In this document: in pieces, positions 2,654 through 36,773 of the stretch | How the letters are laid out: every line of letters starts with the position of its first letter | Numbering within the stretch: the stretch's first letter is position 1 | Virus record (IMG/VR): IMGVR_UViG_3300016474_000092 | Coordinates: 1-37,980 of that record | Length of the DNA stretch: 37,980 nucleotides | Source of the DNA: a virus | Reading direction: 5' to 3' (one strand) | The notes under the pieces: generated by a model | What the model saw: the letters and a program-made list of their open reading frames with translations, nothing else | What the model was told of the DNA's origin: nothing | Databases searched by the model: none | Position numbers and translations under genes: made by a program

Positions 2654-4981
2654 TTGAACTTCGTTGATTATCTCACATCGTTGGCCGCCGAGGGCGAAAC
2701 CGTACTATTTGTGCGACAGAAGCCGCGCAAGGGCGGCGACGGGCAGTTGCAATATCACGCCGACGGGGCGATCAAGGCGTCATGGCCCGCGTATCTGCCC
2801 GAGCGAGCGCATACGTCTGAGGGCGCGTGGTACTGCAACACTGGGTCATTCATCATCGACCGCTTCACTGACGGCAAGCCTAGCGCTGGGGCCGCCTGTT
2901 GCGAGTACGTGATCTGTCTGGTGCTGGATGACGTTGGGACCGATAAAGCGCCGAGGGCGTCGCCCGTGCCGCCGACTTGGATCATGGAAACGTCCGAGGG
3001 TTGTTACCAGTGGGGCTATGCCTTTTCGGAACAGCCGACCAAAGGCGCGTACAGCGCCGCCATCCGCGCGATCACGCAAGCCGGCTACGGCGACACGGGC
3101 GCGATCAATCCGGTCAGGAACTTTCGCTTGCCGGGTAGCGTAAACCTGAAACCCGATAAGGGCGGCTTTCGCGCGCGTCTGGTCGAGTTTCATCCCGACC
3201 GCGAGTACACGCTCCCCGCGCTCTGCTCCGCGTTGGGCGTCGAGCCGGGGCCGGACGACACCGGCGGCGTGCGCCCGATCAGGTTGAGCGATGACGGGTC
3301 GGATGACGTGCTGGCGTGGTTGTCGGCGCAGGGACTTGTCACCGAGCGCCCGAACGCCGAGGGCTGGGCGGGTGTCGTATGCCCGAACGCGAGTGAGCAT
3401 AGCGACGGCTCGCCCGAGGGCCGTTACTTGGCCGCTAATCGCGCTTATTGTTGCTATCACTCGCACTGCGATGGCTGGGACAGCGCGCGCTTCCTGTCGT
3501 GGGTGGCCGATCAGGGCGGGCCGAAGCATACGCCAGGCTTGCGCGATGAGCTGCTGGCCGCCCGAATGGCCGAGGCGATGTCAAAGCTCACGCCGACCGA
3601 GGCGTTCCCCGACGCGGCGGCTGCAGTGGTGGCCGAGGTCGAGCGCCGCGAGGCGGGACGGGTCGAGCGTGAGGGTTGGTTTGAACGGTTTGCGTACCTT
3701 CACGCCGATGACGGTTACTTTGATCTGATCGAGCGTAAACAATATTCGCGCGGTAACTTCAATGCGATCTATCGGCATATCACTTGTTGGTCGGTGCACG
3801 CCGGGGCCAACGGCAAGAAGCGCCGCGTCGAGGCGTCGATTAGCTTTGACGAAAACCGTCAAGCGATGGGCGCGCGGGTGTTGCAGGGCGTGACCTACGC
3901 GCCGGGCGAAACGGTGCTTGTCGCAAAGTCAGGCGACGTTTACGCGAACCTTTGGCGCGACGCGAGGCCAATCGTCGAGGGCGAGGCCGACGTGCGCCCG
4001 TGGCTTGATCTGGTCGAGCGCCTGCTGCCCGAGGCGTCCGAGCGCGAATACTTGTTCGATTGGATGGCCTATAAGGTCCAACACCCCGAGGTCAAGATCA
4101 ATCATGGCGTGCTGCTAGGCGGTGCGCCGGGTATCGGAAAGGATACGACCTTCGAGCCGTTTTTGTATGCGGTCGGCGGGCCGTCGCGCGAGAATGTCGC
4201 GCTGATCAAGAATGAGGAACTCAATTCTCAATGGGGCTACTCGCTGATGAGCGAGGTGCTGGTCATCAACGAACTGCGCCAGGCCGACGCGTCCGATCGG
4301 CGCGCGCTCGAGAATCGGCTAAAACCCCTGCTAGCTGCGCCCCCGGAACTGATACCGGTTAACCGCAAGGGCTTGCACCCGTTCGATGCGTTGAACCGGT
4401 TGAGTGTGGTCGCATTCTCGAATGAGCGAATGGCGATCACGCTTCCATCGGACGATCGGCGCTGGTACGTGCTCTGGTCCGACGCGCGCCCGTTGACGAA
4501 GGTCGAGGGCGCAGCGATTTGGGACTGGTTCAAGGCCGGCGGGCGGGCCGCCGTGGCCGGTTGGCTGCGCTCGAGGGACGTCAGCGCGTTTGCGCCTGGT
4601 GGCGCGCCCCCGATGACCGAGGCGAAGGCCATCATGCTATCGGCGGGCCTGTCAGCGGTCGAATCGGCGCTAGTCGAGATGATGCGCGAGCGCCGGGGCG
4701 AATTCGCGTTAGGCGCGATTAAAGCCCCCTGGCAGGCGCTCGCGGATCGCCTACAGGCCCAGATGCCAGTCGGCACCAAATGCAACGTATACGCGCTGTT
4801 TCACGCGCTCCGCGAGGCGGGCTGGATTGACCTTGGACGGGTCAAGGCGACCCCGAACGGTAGCAAGGTCCACCTCTACTGTGCGCCTGACGTGCTCGAG
4901 GGTGTAGGGGGTAATCGCGCGGAGATTAAGCGGATGCTTGACAACGCGAGCGGGTCCATCGGTTTGCGAGCGGTGAAATGA
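2654..4981 (+). CDS. Primase-polymerase (AEP-type) fused to a D5/VirE-type P-loop helicase
   Basis: TTG start with AAGGAG at 2641-2646. N-terminal LVLDDVG, ETSEGCYQWGY and RNFRLPGSVN (AEP-like motifs). Zinc motif CPNASEHSD...CCYHSHC. Walker A GGAPGIGKDT and Walker B VLVINE. Confidence 0.88.
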   Translation: MNFVDYLTSLAAEGETVLFVRQKPRKGGDGQLQYHADGAIKASWPAYLPERAHTSEGAWYCNTGSFIIDRFTDGKPSAGAACCEYVICLVLDDVGTDKAPRASPVPPTWIMETSEGCYQWGYAFSEQPTKGAYSAAIRAITQAGYGDTGAINPVRNFRLPGSVNLKPDKGGFRARLVEFHPDREYTLPALCSALGVEPGPDDTGGVRPIRLSDDGSDDVLAWLSAQGLVTERPNAEGWAGVVCPNASEHSDGSPEGRYLAANRAYCCYHSHCDGWDSARFLSWVADQGGPKHTPGLRDELLAARMAEAMSKLTPTEAFPDAAAAVVAEVERREAGRVEREGWFERFAYLHADDGYFDLIERKQYSRGNFNAIYRHITCWSVHAGANGKKRRVEASISFDENRQAMGARVLQGVTYAPGETVLVAKSGDVYANLWRDARPIVEGEADVRPWLDLVERLLPEASEREYLFDWMAYKVQHPEVKINHGVLLGGAPGIGKDTTFEPFLYAVGGPSRENVALIKNEELNSQWGYSLMSEVLVINELRQADASDRRALENRLKPLLAAPPELIPVNRKGLHPFDALNRLSVVAFSNERMAITLPSDDRRWYVLWSDARPLTKVEGAAIWDWFKAGGRAAVAGWLRSRDVSAFAPGGAPPMTEAKAIMLSAGLSAVESALVEMMRERRGEFALGAIKAPWQALADRLQAQMPVGTKCNVYALFHALREAGWIDLGRVKATPNGSKVHLYCAPDVLEGVGGNRAEIKRMLDNASGSIGLRAVK

Positions 4982-5643
4982 CGCCCCTAGTACGCGAATT
5001 GTCGCGCATGGTCCCGACGCCCGAGGAGTCGGTCTGGTTCGACCTGGGCGAGATCGAGGGCGAGATCGTGCTGGACGTGGCGCCCGAGCGATTGCTGCAT
5101 TTACCGTTTGATGATATTGCAATCGTCGGCGTGGTCGAGGGAATCCGGTTTGCCGTCCGCGCGATGGCGGGCAATGAGTCGGTCACAATCGCCGGGTTTA
5201 GGTTCACGCGCGAGGCGCGAGACGATTTCGCGCCATTGACGATTATGGCAGACCCCGAGACGGGCGGATTGCGCGTTTACACGCGCGACAATCGACGAGT
5301 AACGGACCTTGATCGGATCGCGATCGCGATCCTAGATTGCCTGTTAACGCGCCTGGACGGGTCGAAGGCGATCGAGGGATATCGGGCCGAGGTTGCGCGG
5401 ACCTTTACCGCTCGGCGCCAGATGGCGCGCGGGAAAACGCCCGCGTATGCGTGGCGAACCGTAGATGTTACCGCACGCGTGCGGGCCGATCGCGGGCCGG
5501 CGGGCGGGTCACATGCGAGCCCGCGCGCCCATGAGCGCAGAGGGCATTGGCGGACCTTGCCAGCGGGCCGGATTTGGGTTCGCCCGTGCCGGGTCGGTGA
5601 TCCGGCGAGCGGGTCCGTGTTTCACGATTATCGGGTGAAATAA
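4978..5643 (+). CDS. Hypothetical protein (221 aa), last gene of the rightward replication operon
   Basis: ATGA overlap with the primase stop. Basic C-terminus with HERRGHWRTLPAGRIWV. No family recognised. Confidence 0.65.
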   Translation: MTPLVRELSRMVPTPEESVWFDLGEIEGEIVLDVAPERLLHLPFDDIAIVGVVEGIRFAVRAMAGNESVTIAGFRFTREARDDFAPLTIMADPETGGLRVYTRDNRRVTDLDRIAIAILDCLLTRLDGSKAIEGYRAEVARTFTARRQMARGKTPAYAWRTVDVTARVRADRGPAGGSHASPRAHERRGHWRTLPAGRIWVRPCRVGDPASGSVFHDYRVK

Positions 5644-5645
5644 AA

Positions 5646-5665
5646 AAGCCGGCACATGCCGGCTT
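5646..5665. terminator. Bidirectional rho-independent terminator between convergent operons
   Basis: AAGCCGGC-ACAT-GCCGGCTT with AAAAA upstream and GGTTT downstream. Lies between the + stop at 5643 and the - stop at 5685. Confidence 0.65.
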
Positions 5666-5684
5666 GGTTTGAGGGTTGATCGGA

Positions 5685-5747
5685 CTACAAGCGTAGGACG
5701 ATCGCAAGGATCGCGGCCGCGAGGGCAACCAAGGCGGCCGCGATCAC
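5685..5747 (-). CDS. Possible 20-aa hydrophobic peptide (MIAAALVALAAAILAIVLRL)
   Basis: The GTG start overlaps the TGA of the upstream gene (GTGA). The peptide is entirely hydrophobic. It is below the ORF-track cut-off. Confidence 0.3.
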   Translation of the reverse strand: MIAAALVALAAAILAIVLRL

Positions 5748-6001
5748 TGTTCCGGCCCGAAAATGGTTTCGATCAGGGCAATGCGATCCGCAAACGGCAT
5801 AGCGTCGAATTCGTCGCGCGTCATGGTGCCGAGCGGATCGACGTGATCGGTCCAGAGATCAAAGGATTGCGCGATTTGCGCGTACGAAAGTTTCGATCCG
5901 GCGGCATAAGTCTGTTCCGCTAGCGCCTGGGCGCGCTCGGCAGCGGCGCATGCGCGGTCGAATTCCGGCGTCCCGTCAATTCTCCAGTGTCGTGATCCCA
6001 T
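5744..6001 (-). CDS. Hypothetical protein (85 aa from ATG 6001; TTG 6013 is an alternative start)
   Basis: ORF-track entry 5744..6013. The internal ATG lies 1 nt after the TAA of the upstream peptide ORF (TAAAATG). Confidence 0.6.
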   Translation of the reverse strand: MGSRHWRIDGTPEFDRACAAAERAQALAEQTYAAGSKLSYAQIAQSFDLWTDHVDPLGTMTRDEFDAMPFADRIALIETIFGPEQ

Positions 6002-6002
6002 T

Positions 6003-6131
6003 TTATTTTCCAATCGTAAAAAGAGCGGCCACGAGGCCAGGCACTAGCGCGACGGCCGCGAGGCGATCGGGGAGCGCGAGCGCGGCACCGATCCCGGCGG
6101 CCATGAGGGTGAGGGCAAGAAGGGCGCGCAT
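6003..6131 (-). CDS. 42-aa membrane peptide (MRALLALTLMAAGIGAALALPDRLAAVALVPGLVAALFTIGK)
   Basis: Hand-translated. ATG lies 1 nt after the TGA of the upstream ORF (TGACATG). Two hydrophobic segments. Below the ORF-track cut-off. Confidence 0.5.
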   Translation of the reverse strand: MRALLALTLMAAGIGAALALPDRLAAVALVPGLVAALFTIGK

Positions 6132-6132
6132 G

Positions 6133-6285
6133 TCAGACTCCCATCAAAAGCTTTTTAAGAAAGGGCACAGCAAGCCCCGTGAGATTGGACAATTCGCGCA
6201 ATGTCATATTCGGGTTGTTGTCGTAAAGTCGCTTGATGTCATCAAGGGTTAGACCGTTGACGGATTTTTTGAGCGTGTAGGCCAT
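6133..6285 (-). CDS. 50-aa protein, possibly a small helix-turn-helix regulator (MAYTLKKSVNGLTLDDIKRLYDNNPNMTLRELSNLTGLAVPFLKKLLMGV)
   Basis: Hand-translated. GGAG lies 7 nt upstream of the ATG. The MTLRELSNLTGLAVPFLKKL segment looks like an HTH. Below the ORF-track cut-off. Confidence 0.5.
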   Translation of the reverse strand: MAYTLKKSVNGLTLDDIKRLYDNNPNMTLRELSNLTGLAVPFLKKLLMGV

Positions 6286-6299
6286 GGTGAGATCTCCGA

Positions 6300-6542
6300 T
6301 TAAGCTTGTGGGGCGCGCTCAAGTAGCGCGATCGTGCGAAGATCAGTAATCTCAATCCATCCACCGGGCCGATACCATCGGCCCGCGCACTCATGTGCTA
6401 ATTGCGTGCCGTAAAATCGCGCGCGCTCCGATAGCGTGGTGCCGGGACGATCGTTTAGGTGCTGGGGCTGAACCGAATAAACCGCGCGGTTTCCCGTTTC
6501 AGGGAATGTCACGATAAAGGTCGAATCTGATAATACGGGCAT
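6300..6542 (-). CDS. Hypothetical protein (80 aa)
   Basis: ATG lies 3 nt after the upstream TAA. The ORF fits the operon without overlapping its neighbours. Confidence 0.6.
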   Translation of the reverse strand: MPVLSDSTFIVTFPETGNRAVYSVQPQHLNDRPGTTLSERARFYGTQLAHECAGRWYRPGGWIEITDLRTIALLERAPQA

Positions 6543-6545
6543 GGT

Positions 6546-7277
6546 TTAGGCCCCTACAAAATGGCGCGCCATCGCGCCGTGAACAACGATAGAAACCGAA
6601 GCACGCGCCGCGTTATCGCCCGCGCCGTCGCATGCTTGGCAATCGATACATTGGCGCCGATTGCCACCCTCGGGCGATGCGGGGCAGGCGATCTCGCGCG
6701 CCGCTAAAGGTTGATCGGCCGTGCGCACGGTAAACGTGCGCCAGCCCATAGCGCGTGCAATGTCACGATCGCGTGCGCTATCGGCGCTCGCCATGACGAT
6801 ATCGCGCAGCTCTTGCGCAATCGCACGGCGCCACTGGTGCGAATAGCCGGTATGTCCGGCCGCGTGCGCGATGAGATCGATCCAATGAGCGGCCGGTATC
6901 GCGGCCGGATCGCCGTATGACCCGATGCGCACCACGCGATCGGCGAGCATACGCGCGCCGTCAATCGGGCTGACCAGCGGGTAAGCGCCGCGCGTCCAAG
7001 CGCCGAATATCGACGCGACGGATTGTCCGACGTTGACATAGCACGTGCGCTTGCGGCCGATCGCCGAATCGCCGCGATGCATGCAATCGCCGCAGATTGA
7101 CGCGTCTTCGCCGCTCGCAATCGCGTCTAGCGGGTGTTGATCGGCGCGCAATATATAGGTTTGCACCATGTCGCCAGTTTTGCTGTTATCGCTGCGCAGG
7201 ATTGCAATCCCGACAATTGGCGCGCCGTCAAGCATTGACGGGCCGTCATAGAAAACGAATCCGGTAGGTTTACTCAT
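6546..7277 (-). CDS. Conserved-looking Cys-rich protein of unknown function (243 aa)
   Basis: Motifs ICGDCMHRG, RTCYVNVGQ, GYSHQW and CPASPEGGNRRQCIDCQACDG. Strong GGAG ribosome-binding site. Confidence 0.7.
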   Translation of the reverse strand: MSKPTGFVFYDGPSMLDGAPIVGIAILRSDNSKTGDMVQTYILRADQHPLDAIASGEDASICGDCMHRGDSAIGRKRTCYVNVGQSVASIFGAWTRGAYPLVSPIDGARMLADRVVRIGSYGDPAAIPAAHWIDLIAHAAGHTGYSHQWRRAIAQELRDIVMASADSARDRDIARAMGWRTFTVRTADQPLAAREIACPASPEGGNRRQCIDCQACDGAGDNAARASVSIVVHGAMARHFVGA

Positions 7278-7300
7278 GTCAGTGTCTCCAGGGTGAGAAT

Positions 7301-7318
7301 GCGCGCCCGTAGGCGCGC
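7301..7318 (-). other. Intercistronic hairpin with a UACG tetraloop on the minus-strand RNA
   Basis: The minus-strand RNA reads GCGCGCC-UACG-GGCGCGC. It lies between the stop at 7329 and the start at 7277. Confidence 0.35.
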
Positions 7319-7328
7319 GGTTGGATGA

Positions 7329-7559
7329 TTAAATTTCAAGGTACTCATATCGGCCGGCGTCGTACTCGCGCAGCACAGCGTGCCCGATGTTGTGATCACA
7401 TTCGCAAGCCATAAGCGTGACAACACCGACAATCCCACGGGCGTCGTCCTCGAACATGACGCGCACGTCGGCGATTGGATCGTCGGGTAGCTGCGGTGCG
7501 TCGATGATCAGCACCTGCGGTGTGCCGTAGTTGCGGCCCGTCGTGTAGTGGTATTGCAT
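7329..7559 (-). CDS. Hypothetical protein (76 aa), first gene of the leftward operon
   Basis: ATG at 7559 is preceded by the same CCTGGAGACACTGAC cassette seen in front of the 7277 start. The ORF-track start at 7613 has no ribosome-binding site. Confidence 0.6.
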   Translation of the reverse strand: MQYHYTTGRNYGTPQVLIIDAPQLPDDPIADVRVMFEDDARGIVGVVTLMACECDHNIGHAVLREYDAGRYEYLEI

Positions 7560-7617: not shown

Positions 7618-7623
7618 TTTATA
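7618..7623 (-). promoter_or_regulatory. Candidate -10 element (TATAAA) of a leftward promoter
   Basis: The minus strand reads ATGGGTCATGTAAAAAGAGGGTTGCAATGCTATAAATTATG. An iteron overlaps the -35 position. A 15-bp palindrome at 7580-7594 lies in the predicted leader. Confidence 0.3.
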
Positions 7624-7774
7624 GCATTGCAACCCTCTTTTTACATGACCCATCAGCGTTTGCGACAAGTCTTATGGCAGATGCCCCTATTGTCATCATG
7701 GGGACCCCAGCGGGGTTATGCCATGGGTTATTGACGTGCGCCTGGTTTCATAGGGCAATGGGTCATATGGGTCA

Positions 7775-7840
7775 TTGTTTTGTTTGATACTGTTTAAATG
7801 ATTAAAAATACTGTATAGATATACAGTAGTAAAAATATGG
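7775..7840. other. Strongly AT-rich core of the control region (candidate DNA-unwinding element)
   Basis: The sequence TTGTTTTGTTTGATACTGTTTAAATGATTAAAAATACTGTATAGATATACAGTAGTAAAAATATGG is flanked by iterons in an otherwise GC-rich genome. Confidence 0.4.
7809..7828. promoter_or_regulatory. LexA (SOS) box-like palindrome TACTGTATAGATATACAGTA
   Basis: 19 of 20 positions match the beta/gamma-proteobacterial consensus TACTGTATATATATACAGTA (CTGT-N8-ACAG). Confidence 0.6.
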
Positions 7841-8072
7841 CGCGTAGACGGTACGCGCGCAAAACGTGGCGCCAAAAAAAATGGGGTGACCCATTGACCC
7901 ATTTGACCCATAAACCCCAGCCCCAGCCCCTTTTCCGCCCATTTTCCAGAACCGATTTCCGGTTTCAATGGTCATGACCCATTTGACCCATTGACCCGAT
8001 TCGCGTGTGATTTGAGCGCAAGCCTGCAACCTTGATGGCCATGACCCATGTGACCCATTGGCCGCATGCCTG

Positions 8073-8139
8073 GCTGGCGTGACGTGATAACGTAGCTGGC
8101 GTGACGTTATAACATCACATTGCGTGACGTGATAACGTA
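8073..8139. repeat. Three phased copies of GCGTGACGT(G/T)ATAAC(G/A)T with 22-bp periodicity
   Basis: Tandem 22-mers at 8073-8094 and 8095-8116, with a third core at 8122-8139. They end about 150 bp upstream of the small terminase start. Confidence 0.85.
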
Positions 8140-10225: not shown

Positions 10226-10639
10226 ATGCCAGGCGGACCAGCAGCAGGCTACGCAATCGGGCATTACGGCATTGGTATGCGCGATCCGTATAAATCAGAA
10301 GACGACTATTTTAAGAAAAACCCTCATGTAGCAGGTATGGCAGCGGAAGACGATAAAATCGTTATGAATCCGTACAGCCAACTGTCAGACAAAGAAAAAC
10401 AAGCGGTTATTCTTAACGAAGCCGCGCGTGTTCACATGCGCACTGGAATGGCAAAACCGCCTCGGTTTGCGTTGACGCCAGAACAAGAACGCGCGTTTGC
10501 GCAGTACAGTCAGAATCCCGAGGACCGTGCGGCCACTGTAGCGGCGCGTATACTTTCTGGCGACCCGTCAGCGCTAAAACCTACCCCTGAACAGATGGAG
10601 TATGTAAACTATCTGCGTACGTTTATGGGGGTGCGTTAG
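10226..10639 (+). CDS. Hypothetical protein (137 aa)
   Basis: ATG lies directly after the large terminase stop. The ORF-track start at 10139 would overlap the terminase by 86 nt. The region looks more AT-rich than its neighbours. Confidence 0.6.
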   Translation: MPGGPAAGYAIGHYGIGMRDPYKSEDDYFKKNPHVAGMAAEDDKIVMNPYSQLSDKEKQAVILNEAARVHMRTGMAKPPRFALTPEQERAFAQYSQNPEDRAATVAARILSGDPSALKPTPEQMEYVNYLRTFMGVR

Positions 10640-10902
10640 TGGCTACTAAGAAGTCAGTCAGCCTGGCAGTCGGACGCGGCGAGAAGCTGCCCGTGTCCAA
10701 GGGCGCGGGGCTGACCGCCAAGGGGCGAGCCAAGTACAACGCCGCGACCGGCAGCAATTTGAAGGCTCCCGCACCAAATCCCAAGACAGAAGCAGACAAA
10801 GGGCGTAAGGCGTCATTTTGTGCGCGTATGTCAGGGGTTGTCAAAAACGCCAAAGGCGACGCTGAGCGAGCCAAGGCGTCACTCAAACGGTGGAAGTGCT
10901 GA
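10639..10902 (+). CDS. Small basic protein (87 aa)
   Basis: GTG start overlaps the upstream TAG (TAGTG), with GGGGGTG upstream. Lys/Arg-rich, includes KASFCARMSG. Confidence 0.6.
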   Translation: MATKKSVSLAVGRGEKLPVSKGAGLTAKGRAKYNAATGSNLKAPAPNPKTEADKGRKASFCARMSGVVKNAKGDAERAKASLKRWKC

Positions 10903-33183: not shown

Positions 33184-33591
33184 TCAGTCATCATATCCGC
33201 GTGCGTGCGGGTAGGAGTTGACCATCGGTCGATTGTAGGTGCCTCGCCGTGGATCAAGCGGCTGTACCGGCTCGAGGAAGTCTTCGGGGACAGGCTCGGC
33301 GGGCCAGAGGTTACGGACGGGTCGGCGGGGCTCGACGACTGGCTCAACGACGGGCTCAACGACGGGCTCGACGACGGGCTCGACGACGGGAAAGGCCATT
33401 TCGGGAACGGCCACGGGACGGGCGTACCAGGTGTTGTGTTGGGTGTGCGCGATTTTGCCTGCTTGCTCGAGTTCATTCAGTGCTCGCCTGACAGTAGAGC
33501 GGGAATACATGAAGTAGTCCGCGATTTGTTTAGATGATTGCGGCGTCTTGCGGTTGCGCAGATATCTTTCAATCTTGTCCGCCGCCGCCAT
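33184..33591 (-). CDS. Winged-helix DNA-binding protein with a (PVVE)x5 repeat (135 aa from ATG 33591)
   Basis: KQIADYFMYSRSTVRRALNELEQAGKI is wHTH-like. GAGGGG ribosome-binding site. The 12-nt x5 repeat lies at 33329-33388. Confidence 0.65.
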   Translation of the reverse strand: MAAADKIERYLRNRKTPQSSKQIADYFMYSRSTVRRALNELEQAGKIAHTQHNTWYARPVAVPEMAFPVVEPVVEPVVEPVVEPVVEPRRPVRNLWPAEPVPEDFLEPVQPLDPRRGTYNRPMVNSYPHARGYDD

Positions 33592-33757
33592 GACGCCCCT
33601 CGCTTTGGATGCCGATCTGATGGCGCAGCATGCGCGCTTCCACGACCGTAGCGGCGCAGATGTCTCGAGCACGTCCCATGTCGTTGTCCATGATGGCTTG
33701 CCAAATCTCGTCCACCATGCGCTTCAAATTCAGATAGCCTTCGCTGTAATCAACCAC
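33569..33757 (-). CDS. Hypothetical protein (62 aa)
   Basis: GTG start with GGAGGTG 4 nt upstream. In frame with ORF-track entry 33569..33808. Confidence 0.5.
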   Translation of the reverse strand: MVDYSEGYLNLKRMVDEIWQAIMDNDMGRARDICAATVVEARMLRHQIGIQSEGRHGGGGQD

Positions 33758-36405: not shown

Positions 36406-36677
36406 CTCACCCCCTTGATAAACGTATCGACATCCTCTACATCCCAAAGCGTCATGTAGTTCTGACCCAGCTTCAGCATGTCGCGCTTGAAGAGTTCCTG
36501 CAGCGTGGACATGCGGCCACCAACCTTCTTAACCTCAACGAACCACACCACGCCGCCTGGCAGCACGACCAGCCGGTCGGCCACGCCACGATGCGCTGGG
36601 CTGACAAACTTGTACGCGATGCCGCCGATGTCCTTGACCCGACGCACCAAATACCTCTCAATATCGCGTTCTAAAAT
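36402..36677 (-). CDS. VRR-NUC domain nuclease. Start uncertain: ATT 36677, TTG 36650 or GTG 36647.
   Basis: GVADRLVVLPGG and WFVEVKK (PD-(D/E)XK core). The in-frame upstream codons encode LERDIERYL, which resembles the conserved VRR-NUC N-terminal helix. Confidence 0.75.
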   Translation of the reverse strand: MLERDIERYLVRRVKDIGGIAYKFVSPAHRGVADRLVVLPGGVVWFVEVKKVGGRMSTLQELFKRDMLKLGQNYMTLWDVEDVDTFIKGVR

Positions 36678-36712
36678 TTTTCATCTCCCGAAGATTTACA
36701 AAGTTTAGACTG

Positions 36713-36741
36713 TTGCAAACTTCAAAGCAAGTGTGTACCAT
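36713..36741 (+). promoter_or_regulatory. Candidate sigma70-type promoter for the rightward replication operon (TTGCAA-17 nt-TACCAT)
   Basis: Hexamers at 36713-36718 and 36736-36741. GGAG ribosome-binding site at 36764-36767, ATG at 36774. Confidence 0.45.
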
Positions 36742-36773
36742 CTGGTTTCGCAAGTCAACTACAGGAGAATCCA

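Follow-up and report, generated by a model that had tools for sequence, protein, structure and literature searches.

A field of repeated octamers at positions 7646-8058 of IMG/VR virus record IMGVR_UViG_3300016474_000092 is likely to be a phage replication origin, served by the phage's own primase-helicase, which would read the octamer TGACCCAT via a C-terminal winged helix. The stretch analysed (the window) is 37,980 nucleotides (nt) long and looks like a complete podovirus-type phage genome; the primase-helicase, of 775 amino acids (aa), is encoded at 2654-4981 on the + strand. The repeats are restricted to a single site, they surround an unstable core, their layout is kept in relatives, and octamer type and primase-helicase allele switch together. 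From sequence comparison we infer that the primase-helicase binds the octamers, with the winged helix as the reader, and that replication starts at the field. The origin is most likely of a known kind, in which a self-loading SF3 helicase works with iterons, as in P4 and the staphylococcal pathogenicity islands (SaPIs).

In the proposed mechanism, the 775-aa protein would recognise the TGACCCAT octamers through its winged-helix domain. The boxes flank an AT-rich core on both sides, pointing outward, and helicase rings would assemble on both sides and melt the core (7778-7837). The protein's own primase domain would then prime DNA synthesis, and the phage DNA polymerase A (683-2602) would take over after priming. 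For a large group of uncultivated freshwater phages, which had no earlier origin or initiator assignment, this would be a concrete pair of origin and initiator that can be tested.

The octamer field and its AT-rich core

A first-pass annotation, made from the sequence alone, had described ten perfect octamers and proposed counting them genome-wide on both strands. An exact count recovered ten copies of TGACCCAT in 37,980 nt, a strong enrichment over the 0.61 expected, and none of 100 shuffles reached ten. All copies lie in a single field of 413 nt (7646-8058), and no exact copy occurs elsewhere in the window. Eight are on the + strand (7646, 7887, 7895, 7904, 7975, 7984, 8042 and 8051) and two on the - strand (7758 and 7767), as annotated, and the measured positions bear out the arrangement in doublets and triplets with 8-9 bp spacing. 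Copies with one mismatch are at chance level outside the field (25, with 21.5 expected for the whole window).

From left to right, the field begins with a solitary exact TGACCCAT box (7646-7653, + strand), about 110 nt left of an inverted pair, followed by a degenerate iteron, TAACCCAT (7723-7730, - strand), with one mismatch to TGACCCAT. The left pair consists of two TGACCCAT copies 9 bp apart (7758-7774, - strand), in the orientation opposite to that of the right-hand arrays. These comprise a triplet with copies at 7887, 7895 and 7904 (7887-7911, + strand), a doublet at 7975 and 7984 extended by a degenerate TGACCCGA at 7992 with two mismatches (7975-7999, + strand), and a further doublet at 8042 and 8051 (8042-8058, + strand). 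Three degenerate copies had been annotated; those at 7723 and 7992 stand, and the third, at 7968, is not a simple mismatch copy, its sequence aATGGTCAT being a reverse-oriented relative of TGACCCAT with one base deleted.

Between the left pair and the right-hand arrays, and so flanked by oppositely oriented boxes (- strand pair left, + strand arrays right), lies the AT-rich core, the proposed DNA unwinding element (7778-7837), with 18% GC in a genome of 57.7% GC. It is the least stable 60-nt stretch of the whole window, with a nearest-neighbour free energy of -62.8 against a mean of -91.2 and a standard deviation of 5.8 (about 4.9 standard deviations), a stronger feature than first described. 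In most relatives the spacer between left pair and right arrays is AT-rich as well (27-46% GC), its sequence differing between core types. Between the core and the first right-hand array stands an element (7840-7884) composed of a GC-rich hairpin (7840-7858) and a GGCGCC-A8 tract (7868-7881), which is terminator-like on the - strand; the GGCGCC-A8-TG segment is kept in most cores of the relatives that carry TGACCCAT boxes (class A, below).

The non-coding region that holds the field measures 726 nt, from the start of the leftward gene (7559) to the putative small terminase (TerS) gene (8286), and not 670 bp as given earlier. A small protein encoded inside the field was considered and rejected: open reading frames (ORFs) there show 38-41% identity to relatives in which the proteins on either side show 83-93%, and the arrays are variably spaced. 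A 46-aa ORF at 7837-7977 was likewise dismissed as a gene, being broken after three codons in the relative L063.

Coupled switching of octamer type and primase-helicase allele

More than 500 related contigs, uncultivated, are present in IMG/VR, and the relatives compared here are the best 80 per query from about 500 of them. Upstream of TerS they form two main groups, one with 6-14 TGACCCAT boxes (class A) and the other without any, carrying TACCCCAC(G) boxes instead (class B). Both classes share one map, expressed relative to the TerS start: a solitary box at about -640, equivalent to that at 7646; an inverted pair at about -530/-520, equivalent to the left pair of the window; an AT-rich spacer; and direct doublets or triplets from about -430 to -170.

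Octamer class and primase-helicase allele (TGACCCAT vs TACCCCAC) were concordant at 50 of 51 loci. The 118 fixed differences between the classes all fall in aa 326-775 (3629-4978, + strand), which hold the SF3 helicase and the C-terminal domain and switch with the iteron type; none falls in aa 1-325. Identity in the helicase part (aa 326-609) is at most 70% between classes and at least 85% within a class, and in the C-terminal part (aa 610-775) at most 53% and at least 72%, respectively. The primase N-terminus (aa 1-325), by comparison, reaches 99% identity between classes (within-class median 96%), and TerS reaches 100% (median 97% between classes and 99% within). Among the ORF families in the 1.8-3.3 kb from gene to boxes, none is class-specific and none is universal; they are mosaic cargo common to both classes. 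Thus a gene half (helicase and C-terminal domain) and a cassette of about 0.45 kb, two non-adjacent modules, are exchanged yet stay matched while the DNA between and around them recombines, which argues for functional coupling rather than mere linkage.

When the non-structural ORFs of two class-A and five class-B long contigs were compared, the primase-helicase alone separated the classes. The first-pass annotation had held that no initiator could be assigned from sequence; the covariation of octamer type with the helicase/C-terminal half of the primase-helicase (2654-4981) now points to a candidate. The two binders suggested at that stage do not follow the octamer class and were rejected. The 50-aa ORF (6133-6285) is missing, like the rest of the leftward operon, from most relatives with 9-14 TGACCCAT boxes, and the winged-helix protein at 33184-33672 has just two detectable relatives (46-47% identity) and fails to separate the motif classes. 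The leftward-operon proteins as a set (76, 54, 243, 80 and 50 aa) and the ORFs of 221, 84 and 100 aa were rejected as binders on the same ground, absence from most TGACCCAT loci.

TerS itself was a further candidate. Terminases often recognise arrays of short repeats located beside their genes, and the field lies directly upstream of the putative TerS and TerL genes; the boxes might be a recognition site for packaging (pac or cosB-like) to which the putative TerS binds. A box-reading protein should change with the boxes, and TerS does not: it has no class-discriminating column and is up to 100% identical across different octamers. TerS was therefore rejected as the binder, and a packaging site is very improbable.

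The primase-helicase, the candidate initiator, falls into three parts. Its N-terminal part matches a PHROG DNA primase (5e-29), with a weak RepB_primase match below the Pfam cut-off. Its central part is an SF3 helicase, with a DUF5906 match (6e-10) and similarity to PDB entries 6k9c and 6k9e (depositor name 'Primase'); the translation contains a Walker A motif (GAPGIGKDT, aa 490-498), a Walker B motif (VLVINE, aa 535-540) and motif C (AFSN, aa 587-590). No Pfam or PDB sequence match covers the C-terminal domain. An AlphaFold2 model of aa 666-769 (4649-4960, + strand), the proposed iteron reader, has a predicted local distance difference test score of 91 and the element order helix-strand-helix-helix-strand-strand, as in a winged helix. 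The top Foldseek matches, which are weak, are all winged-helix DNA binders, such as the Bacillus subtilis replication terminator protein (RTP), PadR, LmrR and MarR, and the model suggests that the fold class is a winged helix.

Within this predicted domain, the residues of helix 3 and the wing (4790-4890, aa 712-745) follow the octamer class, the wing reading DLGRVK or DCGMCH; from helix 3 to the wing the pattern is K-C-x-V-Y...R...DLGRVK in class A and R-V-P-V-S...A...DCGMCH in class B. A distant phage, L078 (TerS 68%), keeps TGACCCAT together with class-A-like residues in helix 3 and wing. A wider sample contained at least 11 octamer classes, located 1.2-3.7 kb downstream of the primase-helicase gene (about 2.7 kb in the window): TGACCCAT, TACCCCAC, T(A/G)CCCCAA, TGTCCACA, TGACTCAC, TGACCCAC, TGACCCAA, TGACTTAC, TTGGCAAT, TGTAGCCAT and TGACAATT. 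Clusters of C-terminal domains at 85% identity were nearly pure for motif class, and within one such cluster (identity at least 85%) motifs differ by a single base. Across clades, one helix-3 residue follows the motif core, with R accompanying TGAC-core motifs except TGACTTAC, A or S accompanying T(A/G)CCCCA, and K accompanying TGTCCACA, TTGGCAAT and TGACTTAC. These loci form a natural specificity series, in which no fewer than 11 octamers go with versions of a single small predicted winged-helix domain. Such a series could help to reveal how initiators of the SF3-helicase type read DNA, and could supply orthogonal pairs of origin and initiator.

Two further observations concern these classes. 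L300 (TGACTCAC) and L313 (TGACCCAC) are identical over the compared stretch from helix 2 to the wing. The commonest iteron class among the more distant relatives (L263-L310) is (T)TGTCCACA, found for example in L264 at 2860-3358 downstream of the primase-helicase gene.

The TGTCCACA class also bears on whether the reader of the boxes could come from the host, as DnaA, another host initiator or a nucleoid protein would: read as TTGTCCACA, it is one base from the DnaA-box consensus TTATCCACA. Against a host reader, the octamer differs between otherwise near-identical phages (TerS up to 100%) and tracks a phage gene, and no DnaA box is present in the iteron field; we give this explanation almost no weight. 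Plasmid centromeres (parC, omega-protein heptads) are typically arrays of direct and inverted 7-11 bp repeats, and the field could accordingly be a centromere-like partition site or a ribbon-helix-helix array in a plasmid-like prophage. This too deserves next to no credence, given that the non-structural genes scanned include no ParA/ParB/ParR-like gene, integrase or repressor, that the closest genome-bin relatives are on short phage-sized contigs rather than chromosomes or plasmids, and that no small gene covaries with the boxes.

Comparison with known initiators

The closest parallels to the proposed origin are architectural. In the P4 alpha protein, a single polypeptide contains a primase and an SF3 helicase as well as a winged helix at its C-terminus, which binds the origin repeats (PMC2777425, PMC4234260). 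The P4 record contains 8-bp 'ori type 1' repeats, TGTTCACC, in 11 exact copies, with 9-11 bp spacing within doublets and triplets and with copies in both orientations; its alpha product has 777 aa. The window is similar in having a polypeptide of about 775 aa and octamers in both orientations (ten, at 8-9 bp spacing), its winged helix being a prediction only. P4 needs two repeat regions, ori and crr, whereas all copies in the window lie in one field with a single AT-rich core. The primase of P4 alpha is of the bacterial DnaG type (PMC2777425), in contrast to the weak RepB_primase match of the window protein.

The Rep and PriRep proteins of SaPIs are self-loading SF3 helicases. Their C-terminal winged helix recognises 6-12 iterons placed about an AT-rich centre, two or more to each side and in opposite directions (PMC9371898). 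The phage-inducible chromosomal islands (PICIs) of E. coli share this layout and come with allelic variants of Pri-Rep (PMC6092414). The window and its relatives share with these islands the short iterons, the AT-rich centre, the opposite orientations and the allelic initiator/origin variants, again with a winged helix that is predicted. They differ in that SaPI iterons are penta- or hexanucleotides rather than octamers, in that the SaPI is a satellite whereas the window represents a complete phage that encodes a DNA polymerase A itself, and in that many window relatives carry a LexA box in the AT-rich centre. In the archaeal plasmid pRN1, ORF904 likewise combines a prim-pol type primase, an SF3 helicase and a C-terminal winged helix that has been proposed to recognise the origin alone (PMC2777425). 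For pRN1 no iterons or cognate site could be identified (PMC2777425, PMC4234260), whereas the window offers an explicit candidate site. The resemblance to the P4 and SaPI systems is one of function and architecture.

Iteron plasmids and the lambdoid O/ori-lambda system also place repeated initiator sites by an AT-rich region, and their initiator and origin specificities co-vary (review PMC4980987). There a separate Rep or O protein recruits the host helicase to iterons of about 17-22 bp, whereas the candidate initiator of the window would be the helicase-primase itself, acting at 8-bp sites.

The first-pass reading of iterons plus an unwinding element as a replication origin is favoured by comparison, through the conserved layout and the coupled helicase allele; the core, besides being a putative unwinding element, also holds a LexA box and promoter-like elements. 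Several points weigh against the origin and its proposed reader. The Foldseek PDB matches of the C-terminal domain are non-significant (E >= 0.046, TM score about 0.4). P4 alpha has no sequence similarity to the window protein (best BLASTP E 0.46), and hhalign found none between the C-terminal alignment and the final 140 residues of alpha. SaPI iterons lie directly downstream of rep, whereas those of the window are about 2.7 kb away, behind variable cargo genes. The helicase and C-terminal block switches as one unit, and covariation cannot separate the reading domain from the helicase; moreover, the covariation screen was confined to the non-structural ORFs. The field resembles a promoter region too, with promoter-like sites and the LexA box, and may have a regulatory role. 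Finally, at the sole discordant locus, L072 (IMGVR_UViG_3300044911_001532), a class-B primase-helicase goes together with 11 TGACCCAT boxes, and no second winged-helix gene is present. From L072:5057 rightwards it is 99.3% identical to L073, which comes from another sample, and to the left 88% identical. The junction, at about 5060, falls in shared cargo sequence, a place where recombination or a metagenome assembler can switch strain; it fits a natural recombinant or an assembly chimera and proves neither.

LexA box, promoter-like elements and genome context

The core contains a LexA (SOS) box, TACTGTATAGATATACAGTA (7809-7828), a perfect CTGT-N8-ACAG palindrome with an AT spacer, of the Beta/Gammaproteobacterial type. 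The pattern CTGT-N8-ACAG occurs twice in the window, with 0.41 expected, the second occurrence (11332) having a GC-rich spacer. Of 45 relatives, 27 have a LexA box at the same core position; they belong to both motif classes, and many class-B loci carry the exact consensus TACTGTATATATATACAGTA; the remaining cores are unrelated AT-rich sequence. Since 18 of the 45 relatives lack it, the box is best seen as an add-on. No cargo gene was associated with its presence, and its target therefore seems constant, for example the origin or a rightward transcript. At the position of the LexA box, one class-B core type (L056) has a different palindrome, GTAAGTACTTAC, and L046 has an imperfect one, GTAAATACTTAC.

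Promoter-like elements accompany the box. At the level of consensus matches, a TTGATA-17-AATACT site overlaps it, and a -10-like TAT(A)GG stands just to its right in most core types. An extended -10-like TGcTATAAA, read from the sequence at 7618-7626 (- strand), lies ahead of the leftward operon, and the solitary 7646 box appears to cover the corresponding -35 position, so the initiator may also affect transcription. In the window phage, the LexA box and the promoter-like core elements suggest that the host SOS system controls transcription across or beside the origin, and a LexA-controlled rightward transcript across the right-hand iterons is plausible.

These elements, together with the location of the field between divergent operons and the position of the 7646 box over the leftward -35, are what could be expected of a transcriptional switch, in which the boxes would be operators for the divergent leftward and rightward (late) promoters, bound by a phage regulator or by the primase-helicase as repressor or activator. 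No regulator gene is conserved with the boxes, however, no cargo ORF family is class-specific, the 33184-33672 protein fails as well, and the sole covarying protein is a replication enzyme; we consider such a switch unlikely as the primary function. An initiator that binds the origin might, as a by-product, also regulate transcription, which would be compatible with an origin. The multi-operator control region of the first-pass annotation thus survives in part, through the LexA box and the promoter-like elements; the phage DNA-binding protein postulated for it does not, the candidate repressor being host LexA.

A bolder proposal, which we regard as doubtful, is that host LexA sits inside the unwinding element and that SOS gates origin melting or origin-activating transcription in the phages that carry the box. 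Weak indications in its favour are the place of the box in the least stable 60 nt and its recurrence in the two iteron classes. The non-structural genes scanned in the window phage include neither a repressor nor an integrase gene. If true, an SOS-gated origin would be a replication switch controlled by a host repressor, a carrier-state or 'wait for damage' strategy built into an SF3-helicase origin. Of the features of the field, only the LexA box within the proposed unwinding element lacks a clear precedent.

In addition to DNA polymerase A and the primase-helicase, the window encodes a DUF2800 nuclease, an SNF2 helicase, putative TerS and TerL, and structural genes (10.3-31.2 kb). Megablast returned no close DNA relatives among deposited phages. 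Among GenBank phages, protein search places MW202483.1 nearest; it is an uncultured 'Podoviridae sp.' from Manatee Spring whose primase-helicase is 47% identical. This phage (L161) has eight GTTTACAT octamers in a single orientation at 10317-10578, with 0.39 expected; the array underlies two coding sequences annotated as 'hypothetical protein' (10314-10511 and 10545-10697), which may have been called in error over an array of iterons. Among genome bins, the nearest relatives are short phage-sized contigs, most of them in Burkholderiales metagenome-assembled genomes, from which the hosts are probably Burkholderiales. No integrated prophage copies were found among close relatives.

The segment between the primase-helicase gene and the iteron field (4982-7559 and its equivalent in L001-L080) is a hypervariable cargo slot of 1.8-3.3 kb. 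The window's genes in this slot are mostly missing from most relatives, which hold other small genes there, and Pfam, PHROGs and NCBIfam gave no informative matches for the small neighbouring proteins. The 243-aa Cys-rich protein (6546-7277; phrog_2554) is widespread in many other phage contigs (L081-L160).

Further elements flank the field. To its left, the presumed 5' leader of the leftward operon contains a 13-nt inverted repeat (7574-7586/7588-7600). To its right, 8073-8139 consists of three 22-nt tandem units containing GTGACGT(G/T)ATAAC, a motif found in 32 of the related loci compared, from both iteron classes; the middle unit is an operator-like 16/18 palindrome, GTGACGTTATAACATCAC. 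In other relatives the same place is taken by tandem arrays of GC-rich heptamers or octamers, for example (GGCGGGC)n or (CTGACGG)n in L044 and L014. The segment 8187-8262, immediately before the TerS start, comprises a GC-rich hairpin, a T-run and then TAGTTATAAT; both iteron classes keep it, and it might be a terminator with the late promoter behind it. As a structured terminator, the GC hairpin with its T-run was rejected, its fold being no better than that of shuffles (z-score -0.65), and a search for known RNA families gave only sub-threshold microRNA matches. The genome's second most AT-rich spot, at 36649-36773, is a divergent region ahead of the DUF2800 gene; it holds a promoter-like TTGCAA-17-TACCAT site and an AAGTTT...AAACTT inverted repeat, and is probably an early promoter region.

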